From the NCBI GenBank assembly GCA_012646185.1, contig GCA_012646185.1_4706.1: DNA of 64,000 bases. One strand, given 5' to 3'. The notes under the pieces were generated by a model. That model made no database searches and was not told where the DNA came from. It saw nothing but the letters and a program-made list of their open reading frames with translations. The position numbers were made by a program, and so were the translations under genes. This document shows positions 4,143-57,206 of the stretch, in pieces. This DNA comes from a phage. The stretch's first letter is position 1, and every line of letters starts with the position of its first letter.

Positions 4143-4259
4143 GTTAATACTCCAATTAGTTTTTTCGATCGATCAAAAGGATAAAATCAGAAGATTCTTT
4201 CTTCATAGGGAAAACACAAGTCGGTTAAGGTTTACTTCTTAAACTCCTTGCGTTCTATC

Positions 4260-4290
4260 AGTTAGGTAATATAGACCTCAACTTTTTTCC
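4260..4290 (-). promoter_or_regulatory. early-type promoter candidate (CTATATTACC motif)
   Basis: Minus strand reads AAAAAAGTTGAGGTCTATATTACCTAA; same motif at three other sites, all upstream of minus-strand genes. Confidence 0.5.
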
Positions 4291-14101: not shown

Positions 14102-16060
14102 CTACGCTGAGACCGCCTGCATGGATACGTACATCACAGGCTGCTTGCACTTTCATGCAAGAGGAGACTATATCAAACCGGCAGCGCAACCTGCTACGGT
14201 AACCTACACTTCGAAGACGCTCGTCCTCTACAGGGTGGTAAATCCCTTAGTCGTTGAACCTGCGTTGTTTCACATTCTTGTTTGTAAGAATGTCGTATTA
14301 CTACGCAACAACCAGGCTGCTGATTGCCCATTGTTTCGCACCTTAGCACCGCTTACGCGGCTTTTCTTTCAGCCTAAGCCTCTTACGGAGGTAGTGCATC
14401 TCAACTGTTGTTTCTGCCTTTCGGCACCTCATGGGTCGTTGAGCTTTAGGGGTTCCCAGCATTTCGTAGGTTTTTCAAGCACTCCCTTTCGGGAATACCG
14501 GACTCATTATTAGCTTATTTATTCAAGTATCTGAAATCCCACTTATCTTTACGTCGTTTATCGCACTTGATGTCAGGATGATTAACACGATGCCTAATAG
14601 TTGTTGCCGATAGCTGGCTGAGATTCTCAGCAGATCGTGCGCCAAGAACAACGAGTTTTGTGTCGTCTGGACGCGTAACTTCTACTGCCCGATAATGCTT
14701 ACGTAACACATCACGCCAATATTCACGACGTTCTGGTTCAGCATACTCAAGCATGTAACCGTTAACATCTACTAAACCGTAGCTTTCGTTTAATCGAGAG
14801 GTAGCGGCTGGTTTACTAATACCGATTGCTTTAGCCGCATCGACCACGGTTTTATACGGGGTCTCATTACCGTCTCTATCTACAACCACAATGAAATCTG
14901 GACGTGAATCGAGTAGCTGCTGTCTGCGTTCGACGGCTTGTTGATGAAGCACCATGTTAACGTGTTCGAACCCGTAACCTTCTGGACCGTGCCACCCTGG
15001 ATTGTTATTCGCTCGATAAAGTACCGTCGCAGATTTCACTCCAGTCTGACGTGACGCCTCGTTTGCACTATGAACAACCGTGGTAGAGCCGTCAGGGTGA
15101 TATATCCGTATCTGGTTCATTATACCGGAACCAATGAAGTTACCATCAGCTGATTTAATATCCGGCCATGGTTGAGGATCATCTTTGAATTTAACCACCC
15201 AGCGGTTATTAAACAGTTTGACTTTTCGAACATGTTTGCCCATTGTCGTATCCGTAACACCTGCGACTACTGATGCCTGTGTGATACTCAGGTACTCAGT
15301 AACGGTATCGTTCCATGTATCCCAAAGCAGAACCGGTTTATTGTCGTCGCGTAAACCGTATTCGATGGCGTGTAGAACGTTACGACTTCTGGTCGCCCAT
15401 TCAAGATTATCGAGAGAGTAATTCCATTTGTCGGCATCGAGATGATTAACGTCCAACTTATCGACATTAGCCGGATATTCCCGCCACGCCAACATCAAGC
15501 AGCGATGCAGAACCTTAGTTCTCGTTACATCCCGACAATCATGACGTAGACTAATGAATACGTAATTATCCTTTTTCGGATACGATCTACATTCCTGACC
15601 GTCTTTGCGGCGAATAACTCGTCCTTTCTCATTTATCAGATAACGGGTGTGTCCAGGAATGACACGATAACCAGGGTACTTAGCGATTTCGTAAGCAGGC
15701 TCGAACCGATAGGATAAATTATCAACATCCCAGTTAGATTCGTCACCATCAACAAACATCGCTTTGACGTACTTCTGTGTTTCAATATCAACCAGGATGT
15801 TTTTGTGTGCGATACAAATCAATGCTGGGATATTGAATTCACGACCGGCTAAGATAACCATGTCGCCATTTCTCGGTATCACGACGTGGGTATCACGATA
15901 CCGTAAATTTCCATAGCCGTCTATTTCAATCCAGCTTAGAAACGGAATGGATATAAACTCTTTTTCAGATACTCGCCATTTAAACATCTTAATACCTATT
16001 TAATACTAAACATCATATTAATAGGTTTAAAAGTTAAAAATGACAGAAAATGGCTAAATT
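14102..16060 (-). mobile_element. group I self-splicing intron carrying an HNH homing endonuclease gene
   Basis: Canonical P, Q, R, S core elements in correct order on the minus strand: P ~14366-14381 (GGCUGAAA), Q ~14312-14326 (AAUCAGCAGCC), R ~14244-14259 (GUUCAACGACUAAGGG), S ~14163-14176 (UUGAUAUAGUC); P4 and P7 pairings are complementary. 5' splice site not resolved. Confidence 0.7.
14515..15987 (-). CDS. HNH homing endonuclease (intron-encoded)
   Basis: 490-aa ORF with HNH-type motif DVNHLDADKWNYSLDNLEWATRSRNVLHA, a NUMOD4-like N-terminal segment and three helix-turn-helix-like repeats in the C-terminal half. Confidence 0.8.
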   Translation of the reverse strand: MFKWRVSEKEFISIPFLSWIEIDGYGNLRYRDTHVVIPRNGDMVILAGREFNIPALICIAHKNILVDIETQKYVKAMFVDGDESNWDVDNLSYRFEPAYEIAKYPGYRVIPGHTRYLINEKGRVIRRKDGQECRSYPKKDNYVFISLRHDCRDVTRTKVLHRCLMLAWREYPANVDKLDVNHLDADKWNYSLDNLEWATRSRNVLHAIEYGLRDDNKPVLLWDTWNDTVTEYLSITQASVVAGVTDTTMGKHVRKVKLFNNRWVVKFKDDPQPWPDIKSADGNFIGSGIMNQIRIYHPDGSTTVVHSANEASRQTGVKSATVLYRANNNPGWHGPEGYGFEHVNMVLHQQAVERRQQLLDSRPDFIVVVDRDGNETPYKTVVDAAKAIGISKPAATSRLNESYGLVDVNGYMLEYAEPERREYWRDVLRKHYRAVEVTRPDDTKLVVLGARSAENLSQLSATTIRHRVNHPDIKCDKRRKDKWDFRYLNK

Positions 16061-28863: not shown

Positions 28864-28944
28864 GGCATCACCTATGTATCATTCTTGCAGGCATCAATGA
28901 AGCCATCACAAGAAGGTAACGTTATACGTCGCCTTCATGACAGT

Positions 28945-28985
28945 CATCATGAAGGTAATATAGTCCTGTTATTTTTTTCAATACG
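28945..28985 (-). promoter_or_regulatory. early-type promoter candidate (CTATATTACC motif)
   Basis: Minus strand reads GAAAAAAATAACAGGACTATATTACCTTCA. Confidence 0.5.
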
Positions 28986-39512: not shown

Positions 39513-39544
39513 CCCTCCTCCTTCCCTGTTGGGTTGGAGGAGGG
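39513..39544. terminator. bidirectional terminator hairpin, family 2 variant
   Basis: ccctcctcc ttccctgttgggtt ggaggaggg; between convergent genes. Confidence 0.55.
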
Positions 39545-39614
39545 TTATGCCGTCAAGCAAAAAAAAAAATGATAGTCACAGGCTCTCCAATGAAGGAGAG
39601 CCGTGACCGTCAGT

Positions 39615-42042: not shown

Positions 42043-42067
42043 GAATGAAATCTCGCTGGCTTACTTC

Positions 42068-42100
42068 ACTTAAGTAATATAGCCGTGAAAAATGTTGGAT
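42068..42100 (-). promoter_or_regulatory. early-type promoter candidate (CTATATTAC motif)
   Basis: Minus strand reads CATTTTTCACGGCTATATTACTTAAG. Confidence 0.5.
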
Positions 42101-53407: not shown

Positions 53408-53707
53408 TTAAGGTTTAGGTTCCGTTTTGTATTGTGCGAGTAATGTGTTGATCTGCTCCCGTTGTTCTTTTAAGTATGCGGGAAGCTGGTCTTCCCGTAC
53501 CGTTCCGATTTCCAACGTGATGTACCAGCGTTGTTCGGAAGCCTGCCATTGAAAACTGCTCTGTAGCCGTAGGATGCTAGGATCACGTACCTTGCTTGCA
53601 CTGTAGTGATCGAACCAATCCAGGTATTCTGCTTTCCCTTCCTCATCGGCAACGTAACGCTGCACGCTGTTCTTCCCTTTGTTTTCGTATCCCGTTGCAC
53701 GTATCAT
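53408..53707 (-). CDS. hypothetical small protein
   Basis: Start reassigned to ATG at 53707, forming an ATGA overlap with the upstream stop. Confidence 0.45.
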   Translation of the reverse strand: MIRATGYENKGKNSVQRYVADEEGKAEYLDWFDHYSASKVRDPSILRLQSSFQWQASEQRWYITLEIGTVREDQLPAYLKEQREQINTLLAQYKTEPKP

Positions 53708-54486
53708 GCGAACGTTTCTCCTGTAATGTGTTGCGGATGGCGTAGCATGGTAGCATCCCATTGTACGATCCGGCTCCGGCTTACCAGCATCATGACGGAT
53801 TCATCGTCAAGCCCTGGCTGCGCAACCGGCAACCAACGTTCGTTAAGCACCTTCGCTTCAACACGTTTCTTGCGGGGATTGTAGCGCACTTCGCTAACCC
53901 AAGCGAATCCAAGTGGATGCACAACCCGTGGATAATACATGCGAAGCAATTGATGCATCCGATCCGTTGCCTCCAGATTGCAATCCACCATGTAAGGTTT
54001 CACCATGGTAAGCTTTTTGGTGTAATACGTTCCAACGGTATGGTTACGCCAACTTGGCAAGGCATGATCCCCTTCTCTCAGTTTGCTATCCGAGTTCATC
54101 GGCCAGACCTGCTGTTTACCGGCCAGCATCGCGTACTGCCGATCAACGCAACGAACCTGATCGGCGAACAATGGATCCAGAACATCATCCACCGCACCCT
54201 TATTGCGATAACCGTGATGTACCACCAACCTGCTTGCGCTCATCGATGCGGGATGCTGGCTCTTATGCGCATACAGCCCACCGTCACCGCGAGGGTCGTA
54301 AAGATAGCCGCATGCGCCACGCCATATCACCTTGCCTACGGTTCTCTCGTTTTCAAGCAGCATCGTCGGCCCATCAAGCAAATTGGTGAACCACTGCACC
54401 TTCACGCATTCCGCTTGGACATGCTCAGGTAATGCCTGATACTCTTTTTGGGTGTATAAGGTATCAAAAATGATTTCATCGTTCAT
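53704..54486 (-). CDS. hypothetical protein
   Basis: 260-aa ORF with GAGGAA RBS; first gene after the promoter motif at 54577. Confidence 0.55.
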   Translation of the reverse strand: MNDEIIFDTLYTQKEYQALPEHVQAECVKVQWFTNLLDGPTMLLENERTVGKVIWRGACGYLYDPRGDGGLYAHKSQHPASMSASRLVVHHGYRNKGAVDDVLDPLFADQVRCVDRQYAMLAGKQQVWPMNSDSKLREGDHALPSWRNHTVGTYYTKKLTMVKPYMVDCNLEATDRMHQLLRMYYPRVVHPLGFAWVSEVRYNPRKKRVEAKVLNERWLPVAQPGLDDESVMMLVSRSRIVQWDATMLRHPQHITGETFA

Positions 54487-54569
54487 TTAAAAAGTTCCTC
54501 TGTTTTTCACGTTAATTAAACAACGTATTGATTTCTATTTGACGCAATACGAACATTGTACGTATGCAT

Positions 54570-54610
54570 CACTAAGGTAATATAGTCGTGAAAGGATTTG
54601 TGTTACAGAA
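54570..54610 (-). promoter_or_regulatory. early-type promoter candidate (CTATATTACC motif)
   Basis: Minus strand reads AATCCTTTCACGACTATATTACCTTAG. Confidence 0.5.
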
Positions 54611-54901
54611 AGGGTTTTGTTGTGTTTTAAGAAGGGATGGATTTAGAAGAGGTGTTTCATGGAAGGTAAACGAGGATAGGTATTTTGATTTAAGTAAGTA
54701 AGATGTTATCTGTATTCGTTAAAAGTGTATTGTTTATCTTAGGTTATGTCTTATTGTTTAATCGTTTAATATTTTTATCTAAGTAGGTTTAACTCTATCT
54801 TGTTTGTATATTTAAATTAAATCAATAAGCTTATCTTCAAAACAATGGATAACATGTGTTTACTACCTTAACGGTAACACATGTCATCTGTGCATTACAC
54901 T

Positions 54902-55110
54902 CCGTTATCACTTCGTTACATGCTTATAAGTTGGATAACTCAAAAAAACATTTGTGATACTCTTCTTCACGTTGTTCATCAGAGTATCTCGTCTATACTC
55001 ATTGCATTCGTATACGACATAACCGTTATACGCTAACGCTACGCTTATAGCTTGATAACTCTAAGGATAAAAACATAAACTCGCTTCGCTCGTTTAGTTT
55101 TTCTTTTTCT
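54902..55110. repeat. imperfect ~45-bp direct repeat pair plus a 12-bp inverted repeat in an AT-rich non-coding region
   Basis: ccgttat...gcttataRSttgGataactc at 54902-54940 and 55023-55066; gataactctaag at 55055-55066 and its reverse complement cttagagttatc at 55099-55110. Confidence 0.5.
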
Positions 55111-55287
55111 TAGAGTTATCCTGTTGCTCGTCTCTAAAGGACTTCGCTCCTCCCCCGTCCCCCGAAGGGGCCGGAGTCGTGGAAATTTTACTTTCCAAAT
55201 ACATTTACAACATCTGTAAACTTTTACTCCAGGTACTTAATCTTATCATTAGAAATTATAAAGAGAAGAATAAACACAAACATAAAC

Positions 55288-55319
55288 CTTCCTCCAACCC
55301 AACAGGGAAGGAGGAAGGG
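55288..55319. terminator. terminator hairpin, family 2 variant (inverted copy of the 39513 element)
   Basis: ccttcctcc aacccaacagggaa ggaggaagg; loop is the reverse complement of the 39522-39535 loop, stems differ by compensatory changes. Confidence 0.5.
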
Positions 55320-55334
55320 AGAGCTTGATTTTAA

Positions 55335-56228
55335 TTAATCGGCGGTGTTATAACCGAATACTGCTTTACCGTAGGTGTGAGTACCGTTAGCTAACGACAG
55401 CACCAGCACATGGTTGTACGTAGCGTTAACGCCCTTGTCAGTAGACTCGGTGGTAGCACCGTTATAGACAAAGGTAGCCGTTTGCAGATTGGCTTTCAGC
55501 TCGGTGATGATCTCATCACTGACACCTGTCTGCTCTTTGATCAGCGTAGTCAGGTTACCTGCCAGGCTTGCATCGATATTTACTTCGTTGCCAGTAATAG
55601 CTTGTAAACCTGCGGTGTAAGTACTGAAGTCTAACGGATAGGTTAACAGACGTGCTGACGTTTTGGTACCATCGCCATCATCAACGTAGGTTAAGTTACC
55701 CAGGTTGGTAACCTTGATGATGTTAGCCAGATCCAGCGTGGTGTTATAAACTTTAACTTGAACAGAGCCATACCACGCCAACGAATCTTCTTTGGCTTCC
55801 AGGGTGATCGTCTGGATACCATGCTGGTCGAAGGTAACCGGCGTAGCTAACGTTTCGGCTTTGATGTCTTTATCTTTATCCAGGAACTTCTCACCGGTCG
55901 GCGTGATCATACCGTAGCGTTGAGCTACAAGGTCAACCACATCACCGATGGTGGTGTCAGCAGTAACGTTAACACGTACAGCGATTTTCTGGAACCACTT
56001 AGCCAGATCCAGACGATGGTAGGTAACATCGCGGTTATTGAAGTAAGGTGTACCATCACCAGGGCTAAGCGTTAAAGTTGCTTCTGGAGCAGAAGCGCTT
56101 TTGGATTTAAGAACGTATTTAAGATCACTGTATTGGAAGCTGGCACCAGTGTCGGCGTTGAGCTGATTGATCTCATCAACGATAAGTTGCCAAGGTGTTT
56201 TTAAAGTAAGCGATACTTGAGTTGCCAT
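55335..56228 (-). CDS. hypothetical protein, likely abundant structural protein
   Basis: 297-aa ORF with GAGG RBS and strongly biased codon usage. Confidence 0.55.
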   Translation of the reverse strand: MATQVSLTLKTPWQLIVDEINQLNADTGASFQYSDLKYVLKSKSASAPEATLTLSPGDGTPYFNNRDVTYHRLDLAKWFQKIAVRVNVTADTTIGDVVDLVAQRYGMITPTGEKFLDKDKDIKAETLATPVTFDQHGIQTITLEAKEDSLAWYGSVQVKVYNTTLDLANIIKVTNLGNLTYVDDGDGTKTSARLLTYPLDFSTYTAGLQAITGNEVNIDASLAGNLTTLIKEQTGVSDEIITELKANLQTATFVYNGATTESTDKGVNATYNHVLVLSLANGTHTYGKAVFGYNTAD

Positions 56229-56369
56229 TTTCTACCTCTATGGTTGTTACATCACTCTCAAAAGATGTAACTGTTTACAGAAATTAATATATTTTATATT
56301 AACGTAAATAATATGGAGAACGACTCCGAATCTCCTTTTCGACCATCAAAAATCAGAGGACACATTATC

Positions 56370-56912
56370 ATGGCCTTAGACTTTAACAAAGCAGCGAAAT
56401 CCCTTCTGCTTGATCTTATCAACACCAAAGCAACCCGCCCACTGACTGAAGAAGAACTGCAGTTCGGTACTCCGGGAGCATCTTCCGAACATGAAAAGAA
56501 CACCGTTATTCAGCTGGATGCTGCAGTTGGTGCAGAAAACCTGCAGGGTAGTCAGCAGTTCTACTACGATCGTCTGGCTCTGTCCGAAGTTTTCGCTGAA
56601 GTAACCGGCGATGTTACTTTCGAACTGCCGCACGGTACCGACAGCATCCAGGCTTCTGAACTGGTAAGCAAGCTGGTCACCAAATTCGGCCTGGCTTCCC
56701 TGACCGGTGAAATCAAAGAAGAAACCTTCCAGCTGTCTGCAGGTACTGTTGCTCAGGTAACTCTGAACGCGATCGAGAACGGTCTGGTATATACCGGCAC
56801 TCTGCAGGTTGCCCTGACCTATGCAGCAGCACCGAAAGACCAACTGGCAACCGTTCTGGCGGATAACGTAGCTGATGGCTTCGTGAAACCGACCGTTAGC
56901 GTTGTTGGCTAA
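56370..56912 (+). CDS. hypothetical protein, likely abundant structural protein
   Basis: ATG at 56370 with AGAGGA RBS; strongly biased codon usage; divergent from 55335..56228. Confidence 0.55.
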   Translation: MALDFNKAAKSLLLDLINTKATRPLTEEELQFGTPGASSEHEKNTVIQLDAAVGAENLQGSQQFYYDRLALSEVFAEVTGDVTFELPHGTDSIQASELVSKLVTKFGLASLTGEIKEETFQLSAGTVAQVTLNAIENGLVYTGTLQVALTYAAAPKDQLATVLADNVADGFVKPTVSVVG

Positions 56913-57107
56913 TAAGCACATAGAGCAATAGTATGGGTTTTGTACAGCTCGGCTATTGCTCTTCTACAATTTGGTTGTAACAATCTGCGTGGTTGCACGC
57001 TTATCTTTCTCATTGAGCGCTTCGTATGAAGCGTGGTGTTGAAAGGGTTGTGGATCTCCTCAAGCGGCCAGGGACCCAGACCAACCTGAATAAACACGAA
57101 CACCTGT

Positions 57108-57146
57108 TAAGCCCCTCCTCATCCGTTATTGGGTGAGGAGGGGTCT
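57108..57146. terminator. hairpin, candidate bidirectional terminator
   Basis: cccctcctca ... gtgaggagggg between convergent genes; a second hairpin agagcaatag...ctattgctct lies at 56916-56960. Confidence 0.45.
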
Positions 57147-57206
57147 TATACGTCTTTATGCGTTCCGTTCGTTCTGGAGCGTTTTAGGACGGTTTACGGC
57201 AGGGTT

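Follow-up and report, generated by a model that had tools for sequence, protein, structure and literature searches.

The longest non-coding region in a 64,000-nucleotide (nt) stretch of phage DNA (contig GCA_012646185.1_4706.1 of GenBank assembly GCA_012646185.1; hereafter, the window) is the gap at positions 54487-55334. This gap extends exactly from the start of a 260-amino-acid (aa) open reading frame (ORF) to the stop of a 297-aa ORF, both on the minus strand and homologous, respectively, to gp021 and gp022 of Escherichia phage vB_EcoM_Goslar (Goslarvirus), a nucleus-forming jumbo phage of the Chimalliviridae type with a 237-kb genome. Both the flanks and the gap match Goslar, with a nucleotide identity of ~91% across the gap and ~95% across the 24.5 kb aligned (Goslar position 1 corresponds to window position 39520). 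The Goslar counterpart of the gap, at 14,972-15,825, is 854 bp long, and nothing is annotated there. No longer gap exists in the collinear part of the Goslar annotation or, by the annotation tables, in the genome as a whole, the runners-up being 819 bp and 667 bp long, the latter with an annotated intron. The original prediction, made from the letters of the window and a list of its ORFs, described the region as the longest non-coding stretch, AT-rich and free of tRNAs and of ORFs with a ribosome-binding site. All of this holds: the coordinates are exact, the GC content is 0.30-0.39 by segment vs ~0.47 in the whole window, no ORF of the gap is preceded by a Shine-Dalgarno sequence, and ARAGORN detects no tRNA or transfer-messenger RNA genes in the window.

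The gap lies between a late and an early gene. The gp022 homologue (93% aa identity to Goslar gp022) matches the Pfam family DUF7941 (E=1e-50), and in the published Goslar RNA-seq table, gp022 drops from 417, 508 and 503 raw reads in the control to 4, 5 and 14 on knock-down of ChmA, with a tabulated log2 fold change of about -4 to -5. A Pfam search with the gp021 homologue yields no match; in the published count table, the reads of Goslar gp021 are the same or higher under ChmA knock-down. Thus, gp021 is expressed without the phage nucleus and the gp022 reads collapse, which makes the gap a late-to-early boundary. Indeed, the gap joins the predicted terminator of a late gene to a predicted early promoter, in keeping with a regulatory hub, one of the four candidate functions put forward initially, next to a replication origin, a packaging-related site and a non-coding RNA (ncRNA) locus.

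For the comparison with related genomes that the original prediction had proposed, loci were collected by the gp022 protein, and 17 genomes, from phage isolates, metagenomes and bacterial assemblies, were found to carry the gap (alignments A4 and A6). These include Goslar and two IMG/VR contigs, seven metagenome contigs, and six further loci from a wider-clade protein search in which gp022 is 77-84% identical; two additional loci were recovered from a clade with gp022 51-54% identical. The comparison separates a frozen core from a hypervariable spacer, the two halves of the gap evolving in opposite ways: the right half (the core) is near-invariant, and the left half (54601-54941) is variable. 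In our judgement, the gap probably represents a late/early boundary equipped with a terminator, a structured minus-strand ncRNA of ~305 nt, an AT-rich spacer and an early promoter. Under this model, transcription of gp022 would stop at the hairpin H1 and its U tract (55318-55287). A single-copy RNA of ~305 nt (55248 to 54942), starting somewhere between 55286 and 55239, would fold into the hairpins H2-H8 and end at the U7 tract after H8; a fraction of the transcripts may continue for another ~105 nt, up to a second hairpin and U tract, in 14 of the 17 genomes. The fast-evolving AT-rich spacer with its AAGATAA words would come next, and the early promoter (54593-54569), together with a leader of ~80 nt, would drive the early operon gp021-gp014. 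Of the four candidates, the regulatory hub and the ncRNA locus are supported; the division into core and spacer and the strand had not been recognized.

Conservation of the core

The core is the best-conserved stretch of its ~12-kb neighbourhood across the 17 genomes. The longest run invariant in four genomes spans 225 bp of it (54949-55173), compared with 86 bp for the next longest in ~10 kb, and across eight genomes, 97% of the columns at 54943-55248 are invariant vs 73-85% in the neighbouring genes. The core remains 94-97% identical in genomes in which the gp022 DNA is only 75-80% identical and synonymous changes occur in 34-37% of the unchanged gp022 codons. Conservation stops exactly at the U run, the length of which differs among genomes. 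Stems, loops and linkers are all nearly frozen while the neighbouring genes drift. In Goslar, the core is present in a single copy, at ~15,434-15,740.

A protein-coding gene could, in principle, account for this conservation, and a candidate is embedded in hairpins H2-H6, namely, a 36-codon ORF (55204-55094, minus strand) with the ATG, the frame and the stop intact in 17 of 17 genomes. Nevertheless, it has no Shine-Dalgarno sequence, whereas the neighbouring genes have GAGG 6-10 nt upstream of their starts, and its low-complexity product has no Pfam match. Between the window and genome L024, this ORF shows one non-synonymous and no synonymous changes, with ~12 synonymous changes expected at the gp022 rate; the chance of observing none is 0.64^33, or ~4e-7. 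Those of its codons that do vary change mostly non-synonymously and are located in covarying stems, and the near-invariance runs well outside the ORF on both sides, ~150 nt past its stop and ~45 nt ahead of its start. We therefore judge that this ORF is not a protein gene, and a 36-residue micro-protein appears extremely unlikely as the cause of the conservation. The plus-strand ORFs of the gap are broken by indels or lack start signals.

Scans for known RNAs gave nothing relevant either. Rfam 15 has no match in the gap at the gathering score, the only match in the whole window being a group I intron (see below); at E<=10, the gap yields only two chance-level matches, of 18 and 15 bits. Together with the ARAGORN result, this completes the tRNA and ncRNA scans that had been proposed, and neither an annotated RNA gene nor a conserved small protein gene, the findings named in advance as fatal to the non-coding interpretation, accounts for the region, the 36-codon ORF lacking both a ribosome-binding site and synonymous drift.

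Predicted structure and transcribed strand of the core

Folding of the core (306 nt) gives a minimum free energy of -86 kcal/mol (z=-4.6), and a wider segment of 410 nt reaches z=-5.8 on either strand. The predicted structure is a series of seven local hairpins (Table 1). It incorporates the 12-bp inverted repeat noticed in the original prediction, gataactctaag / cttagagttatc, the arms of which are confirmed at 55054-55065 and 55109-55120 and, with 85% complementarity, can be lengthened to 20 nt. In phage T7, RNase III processing hairpins lie between genes on the transcribed strand; H6, likewise a long, interrupted intergenic hairpin of ~25 bp, is reminiscent of these.

Across the 17 genomes, the 87 modelled pairs make up 1474 cells, 100% of which are standard pairs, with compensatory changes on both sides in four pairs (17 cells). 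In a control in which the partners were slid by 1-3 columns, 36-50% of the cells were paired and no compensatory changes were found, and none of 500 shuffles reached the observed number of compensatory cells, the percentage paired or the covariation score. The variable pairs also discriminate between the strands. If one base of a Watson-Crick pair undergoes a transition, one strand acquires a G.U and the other an A.C. Among the modelled pairs read on the minus strand, nine have a G.U state and none has A.C, an outcome with a chance of ~0.002 if the events are independent. This asymmetry speaks for a minus-strand transcript, and against duplex or cruciform DNA, as the target of selection.

The same asymmetry bears on the possibility that the gap functions as DNA, as a pac recognition site or as cruciform or protein-binding palindromes. 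The region is single-copy and rich in inverted repeats, and whole hairpins or their loops are flipped among the genomes: H1 is inverted in L029 (L029:3655-3700), the H4 loop UUCG reads CGAA in L013 (L013:3860-3890), and five genomes (L010, L014, L016, L024 and L029) have a perfect hairpin, AACGTTTTGT-GAAG-ACAAAACGTT, inserted downstream of the core, with its loop inverted in L029. The flipping and insertion of hairpins and loops as units point to recombination across palindrome arms, that is, on DNA palindromes. However, duplex or cruciform DNA would not distinguish G.U from A.C at the nine stem positions, and the terminase gene is ~60 kb distant when counted across the joined ends of the record. 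We consider a DNA-level element very unlikely, and a packaging site at the gap, as initially suggested, finds no support.

Several observations weigh against a structured minus-strand RNA, or limit the case for it. The folding z-scores are the same on both strands. Two of the shuffle measures are not significant, namely, the number of pairs changed on both sides (120 of 500 shuffles) and that of further pair types (426 of 500). H3, H5, H6 and H8 never vary, and with most of the structure invariant, covariation supports it only in part; the informative changes come from few lineages, which also recombine, so that the genomes are mosaic. The fold of 55053-54991 is ambiguous, with RNAalifold favouring another pairing. 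The putative terminator H8 plus U7 is a weak, AT-rich one, with a 7-nt gap ahead of the U run. No promoter could be assigned to the core, the early motif being absent upstream of it. Finally, the clade with gp022 51-54% identical has neither the core nor the spacer. In these phages, an early promoter lies no more than ~25 nt past a terminator hairpin (L023), ahead of an ORF of ~94 codons that resembles a small membrane protein (loci L023:5883-6256, where it is uncalled, and L031:2162-2511); the early genes gp014-gp021 are missing as well, the absent block being gp013-gp021, and the genes for thymidylate kinase, RuvC and SbcC follow directly. The core thus is a clade-specific accessory element and not a universal requirement.

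With regard to the ambiguous segment, the long hairpin proposed by RNAalifold for 55053-54991 includes no compensatory pairs and is broken three times in L013, compared with two compensatory pairs and no breaks for the local H7; single-sequence folding is undecided between the two. The adjacent linker (55053-55019, minus strand) is affected by two deletions of one base each, 24 nt from each other: that of the C following the H6 stem and that of an A in GCGUAUAACGG. These co-occur perfectly (both in five genomes, neither in 12) and stay linked although the neighbouring markers are shuffled by recombination. The GUUAU and AUAAC sequences at the two deletion sites could pair, hinting at an alternative helix.

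On balance, the core is most likely an unannotated structured ncRNA encoded on the minus strand. Its conservation greatly exceeds that of the genes on either side, and the substitutions that it has undergone keep the hairpins in a strand-specific manner, which favours the ncRNA locus among the initial candidates; of the marks of an ncRNA gene, conservation above the neutral level that has no coding explanation is present, and covariation on one strand is present in part. We infer from the sequence comparison that the core is transcribed as an RNA of its own, where this RNA would start and end and how it would act. The equal constraint on stems, loops and linkers suggests a folded particle recognized by one or more proteins rather than a short antisense seed and, with low confidence, we propose that the core RNA is a protein-recognized scaffold, decoy or regulator and not a seed-pairing antisense RNA.

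Table 1 Predicted features of the gp022-gp021 gap and its flanks (window coordinates)
Feature	Position	Strand	Description
gp022 homologue, upstream flank	55335-56228	minus	ORF; virion structural protein, DUF7941; late, nucleus-dependent
H1 hairpin, predicted gp022 terminator	55287-55318	minus	CCUUCCUCCUUCCC-UGUU-GGGUUGGAGGAAGG, GC-rich, followed by U-rich tract
Variable U-rich spacer	55249-55286	minus	GC 0.18; holds H1 U tract and TATG word
Conserved core, candidate ~305-nt ncRNA	54942-55248	minus	seven local hairpins; ends in U7 tract
H2	55238-55197	minus	core hairpin
36-codon ORF MYLESKISTTPAPSGDGGGAKSFRDEQQDNSKKKKN	55094-55204	minus	embedded in H2-H6; judged non-coding
H3	55196-55181	minus	core hairpin
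H4	55176-55153	minus	core hairpin, C(UUCG)G tetraloop
H5	55147-55126	minus	core hairpin
H6	55120-55054	minus	67-nt core hairpin; 12-bp inverted repeat forms lower stem
Linker	55053-55019	minus	unpaired, three AGCGU repeats
H7	55018-54991	minus	core hairpin
H8	54988-54956	minus	core hairpin
U7 tract	54948-54942	minus	3' end of core
Module 2	54836-54941	minus	degenerate partial core copy, hairpin and U tract; terminator-like, dispensable
Hypervariable AT-rich spacer	54601-54835		GC ~0.30; same-orientation TTATCT(T) words
Early (virion RNA polymerase) promoter TTTCACGACTATATTACCTTAGTGA	54569-54593	minus	predicted to drive gp021-gp014 operon
gp021 5' untranslated leader	54487-54568	minus	~80 nt; GAGGAA ribosome-binding site 8 nt before ATG
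gp021 homologue, downstream flank	53704-54486	minus	ORF; early gene of unknown function; hypervariable N-terminal half

Terminators, promoters and the AT-rich spacer

The H1 hairpin, located 17 nt past the gp022 stop, consists of 12 pairs, nine of them G-C, and is followed by UUUAUGUUUGUGUUUAUU. As stated in the original prediction, the gap ends with a hairpin of a repeated family (its family 2): a second copy is present in the window at 39516-39546, and there are at least 10 copies in Goslar, several of these at annotated terminators. One of the H1 pairs (22-49 in alignment A6), otherwise U-A, is C-G in six genomes and U.G in one. With a stem and a U tract after the stop codon, a compensatory change and recurrence at gene ends, H1 is the predicted intrinsic-type terminator of gp022. 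A scan of the gap for sigma-70 promoters and simple terminators yielded nothing above chance, H1 being missed because its U tract is interrupted; host RNA polymerase (RNAP) promoters are unlikely to be relevant in this phage family. In the U-rich stretch between H1 and the core (55249-55286), only 66% of the columns are invariant, and indels are present. A TATG word follows H1 in 14 of the 17 genomes and is replaced by TATAC in L025, L028 and L030. All four TATG bases are required in the phiKZ-type late promoter (T-3 A T G+1; PMC7598289) and, given the loss in three genomes, a late start of this type for the core RNA is not conserved.

Other candidate motifs were considered and rejected. At its 5' edge, the core carries TTAAGTACC and AAGATTAAGTA, neither of which is a recurrent, promoter-like motif; GTTTATGTTT, found twice in the gap, is not a repeated motif of the window; and TCTGTAAACTTTTACT, on the plus strand inside H2, has only three sites (E=0.17). 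Ahead of Goslar gp245, the latter sequence is matched at 16 of 16 positions, and a longer motif related to it is found before gp022. This motif of ~35 nt, TCTGTAAACnnTTACnTCTnTT..GAGAGTnATGT, is shared by gp022 (56266-56283, minus strand) and Goslar gp245 (Goslar 173084-173120), in both cases 40-70 nt from the start codon, and its first 16 nt recur in H2 on the opposite strand (55211-55226, plus). It could be a middle or late promoter, a leader element or a chance resemblance. The published chmA start site was of no help in the promoter search.

Immediately downstream of the core lies module 2, which begins with a degenerate copy of part of the core. This copy is the left arm of an imperfect direct repeat that had been noticed initially as ~45 bp long, with the arms ~120 bp apart, and that indeed links 54902-54951 with 55023-55076 (~50 bp), with a local score of 31 vs 13.5 +/- 2.4 in Markov shuffles (maximum of 25 in 500). 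The copy is followed by a 13-bp hairpin with 92% complementary arms (54888-54876 and 54860-54848) and a U tract (54847-54838). The stem is conserved and the loop variable, and an A-to-G change in L005 gives G.U. Module 2 is present in 14 of the 17 genomes and missing from L006, L012 and L013, and thus is dispensable.

These hairpins raise the question of whether the core is an independent RNA at all. It might instead act only in cis, as a structured 3' tail of the gp022 message combined with a stack of back-up terminators, whose role would be to stabilize the late transcript and to keep late read-through out of the early operon. There are three serial hairpin-plus-U-tract units on the transcribed strand (H1, H8 and module 2), no separate promoter was found, the gap falls exactly at the late/early boundary, and stacked or elongated terminators have been described in a related phage (PMC11512511). 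Yet neither insulation nor stabilization requires ~300 nt that are frozen in loops and linkers; the other Goslar copies of H1 have no such tail, the core being single-copy; and relatives manage without the core, with an early promoter directly after the terminator. We regard a purely cis-acting element as doubtful and favour an ncRNA that is transcribed separately.

A promoter motif had been reported at the 3' side of the gap. The motif is there, at 54569-54593, but this is the low-coordinate end, which is 3' only in the direction of the genes. It is kept in all genomes compared and duplicated in L006. The consensus TTTCACGrCTAyATTACyT has 15 matches in Goslar, ~12-13 of them convincing and 14 on the minus strand, compared with 0-2 in shuffles, and chmA, the gene for the nuclear shell, has one of the copies upstream. 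The early promoters described for such phages are AT-rich motifs of ~10 nt found near -10 (PMC7598289). As a recurring AT-rich motif with a nucleus-independent gene downstream, TTTCACGACTATATTACCTTAGTGA fits a virion-RNAP early promoter. The extended family, TTTCACGrCTAyATTACyTnnrTGA, has four clear copies in the window, all on the minus strand (4250-4274, 28939-28963, 42058-42082 and 54569-54593). The gp021 leader is well conserved near the start codon. The leader and the C-terminal part of gp021 are conserved, unlike the N-terminal half (53920-54486), which is hypervariable among Goslar-like genomes to the extent that blastn fails in several relatives; the nucleotide identity to Goslar at 53920-54519 is 55-77% vs a genome average of ~95%. 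This pattern suggests diversifying selection or cassette exchange.

Between the core and the early promoter, sequence turns over rapidly. In the left part of the gap, ~10% of the columns are invariant and indels are numerous, and the core and the early promoter are separated by 114 nt (in L013) to 435 nt. The TTATCT(T) words of the spacer, which read AAGATAA on the transcribed strand, are spaced at 28, 41, 21 and 35 bp. GATAA/TTATC occurs 11 times in the gap of the window, with 2.9 expected, and two of 2000 shuffles reach 11. The Goslar counterpart of the spacer (~15,050-15,450) is the most AT-rich 300 bp of the 237-kb genome (GC 0.28) and contains six same-orientation TTATCT words in 140 bp, the genome average being 0.21 per 300 bp and the next-best cluster, three.

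In ColE1 (RNA II), T4 (the oriF and oriG R-loops) and T7 (the primary origin), a promoter or an RNA is followed by an AT-rich unwinding region. The gap could similarly be a transcription-primed replication origin, in which a structured RNA would be transcribed into the most meltable DNA and the persistent hybrid would be processed to a primer, with the AAGATAA words binding an initiator or architectural protein. Some features of the sequence are shared with these systems or fit such a function: in the longest gap of the genome, a single-copy element combines a structured putative transcript with the most AT-rich DNA nearby, into which the core RNA points, and with the sole cluster of TTATCT words in the same orientation, and Goslar encodes an RNase H-like protein, gp190. 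Moreover, the words 'origin of replication' do not occur in the jumbo-phage review (PMC13282480), so that this review puts no origin on record that would contradict such a function. Compared with ColE1, T4 and T7, however, the AT-rich repeat part is the least conserved, indel-rich and partly dispensable, being reduced in L013 as noted above. Of the features of iteron-type origins, an AT-rich unwinding region is present, and phased 17-22-bp repeats, a skew switch and replication genes are not: the words are 6-7 nt long and irregularly spaced, the flanking genes are co-oriented, and no replication gene is adjacent. The GC-skew analysis suggested for origin mapping shows no turn in the cumulative skew here, either in the window or in Goslar, and the clade with gp022 51-54% identical lacks the whole element. 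The AT-richness and the TTATCT cluster thus speak for an origin in a circumstantial way, and we find a transcription-primed origin unlikely. Similarly, it seems rather improbable that the core RNA and the AT-rich TTATCT region together constitute the RNA-primed replication origin of the Goslar-like nucleus-forming phages.

Distribution, related systems and significance

The core was not detected outside Goslar-like genomes in phage records (searched in near and distant modes), plasmids or complete E. coli genomes, nor were there any hits beyond Goslar-like genomes in viral contigs (two exact patterns) or species-representative genomes (hairpin pattern). In the syntenic regions of SPN3US and CR5, there is no long gap, and DUF7941 paralogues are tightly packed. 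Compared with the more distant clade, the core and the spacer resemble an insertion of ~700 bp, and small hairpin modules come and go in the spacer, as could be expected of a miniature mobile element or a decayed gene remnant. However, each genome carries the element once, at a site that does not change, and it is missing from the other collections searched; no terminal inverted repeats or target duplication were noticed at the ends; and a remnant would be expected to decay, not to surpass its whole neighbourhood in conservation. Such an origin of the element is hardly credible, and a structured ncRNA remains the preferred explanation.

Goslar-like gp022 proteins are also encoded on contigs of 236-246 kb labelled as Salmonella enterica, Shigella flexneri and E. 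coli assemblies, in agreement with reports of lytic jumbo phage genomes in isolate assemblies; Goslar-like sequence is absent from the complete E. coli RefSeq genomes searched. Elsewhere in the window, a second conserved non-coding stretch (56913-57206) lies between the convergent gp023 and endolysin genes. In its 56925-57099 part, 100-bp windows are 98-99% identical across eight genomes, with 94-96% of the columns invariant, and identity to Goslar is complete over a run of 284 bp (56814-57097). The predicted folds of this stretch are far more stable than those of shuffled sequences, with z=-6.0 on the plus strand (-114.9 kcal/mol) and z=-4.7 on the minus strand. A further structured RNA is one possibility, a complex bidirectional terminator region another. 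The group I intron mentioned above (14144-14530, minus strand; RF00028, 56.3 bits, E=1e-11) is located in the RNA polymerase gene region; its equivalent is annotated in Goslar at 211817-212245, beside the phiKZ-ORF179-like gene gp206.

The closest parallels to the core are the small RNAs (sRNAs) reported from intergenic and 5'-untranslated regions in the transcriptomes of phiKZ and 201phi2-1, analysed by cap-selective long-read sequencing (PMC11512511; reviewed in PMC13282480). The 201phi2-1 sRNAs and the phiKZ sRNA upstream of gp182 are also hairpin-rich, non-coding, intergenic elements of Chimalliviridae whose function is unknown; each has a start site and, close by, a terminator, and some are conserved among related phages (PMC11512511). 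These sRNAs are, however, defined by transcripts and shorter than 250 nt, whereas the core, of ~305 nt (up to ~410), is defined by conservation and structure. Furthermore, the core has no similarity outside the Goslar clade and follows a DUF7941 gene, whereas the phiKZ sRNA precedes a gp182-type tail gene. H1, but not the core, is comparable to the terminator-hairpin families of phiKZ and 201phi2-1 (PMC11512511), being likewise a repeated GC-rich hairpin with a U tract at gene ends, with a motif sequence that is specific to the Goslar clade. In the same vein, CTATATTAC is a short conserved AT-rich motif before early operons, like the virion-RNAP early promoters of jumbo phages (PMC7598289), from which it differs in its Goslar-clade-specific consensus.

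The core thus would be a new family of a known kind, the jumbo-phage sRNAs, longer than those described and derived from comparative sequence analysis. For the nucleus-forming jumbo phages, Goslar serves as the model in E. coli. Its record leaves the gap blank, and the present analysis provides exact coordinates there of a predicted late terminator, a predicted early promoter and an unannotated conserved element. The conserved core could also be used as a diagnostic marker for the Goslar-like clade. Given that RNA-seq data for Goslar and RNA-targeting knock-down tools exist, a direct test is feasible. Should the gap prove to be an origin, it would show where and how these phages start replication, which is not described in the literature on jumbo phages that we consulted, and would imply that a phage replicating in its own protein nucleus starts DNA synthesis by an RNA-primed, ColE1/T4-like mechanism. 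If the core is an RNA, as we consider most likely, it would offer a tractable candidate for a scaffold or regulatory RNA made by a phage, in a system that keeps transcription spatially apart from translation.

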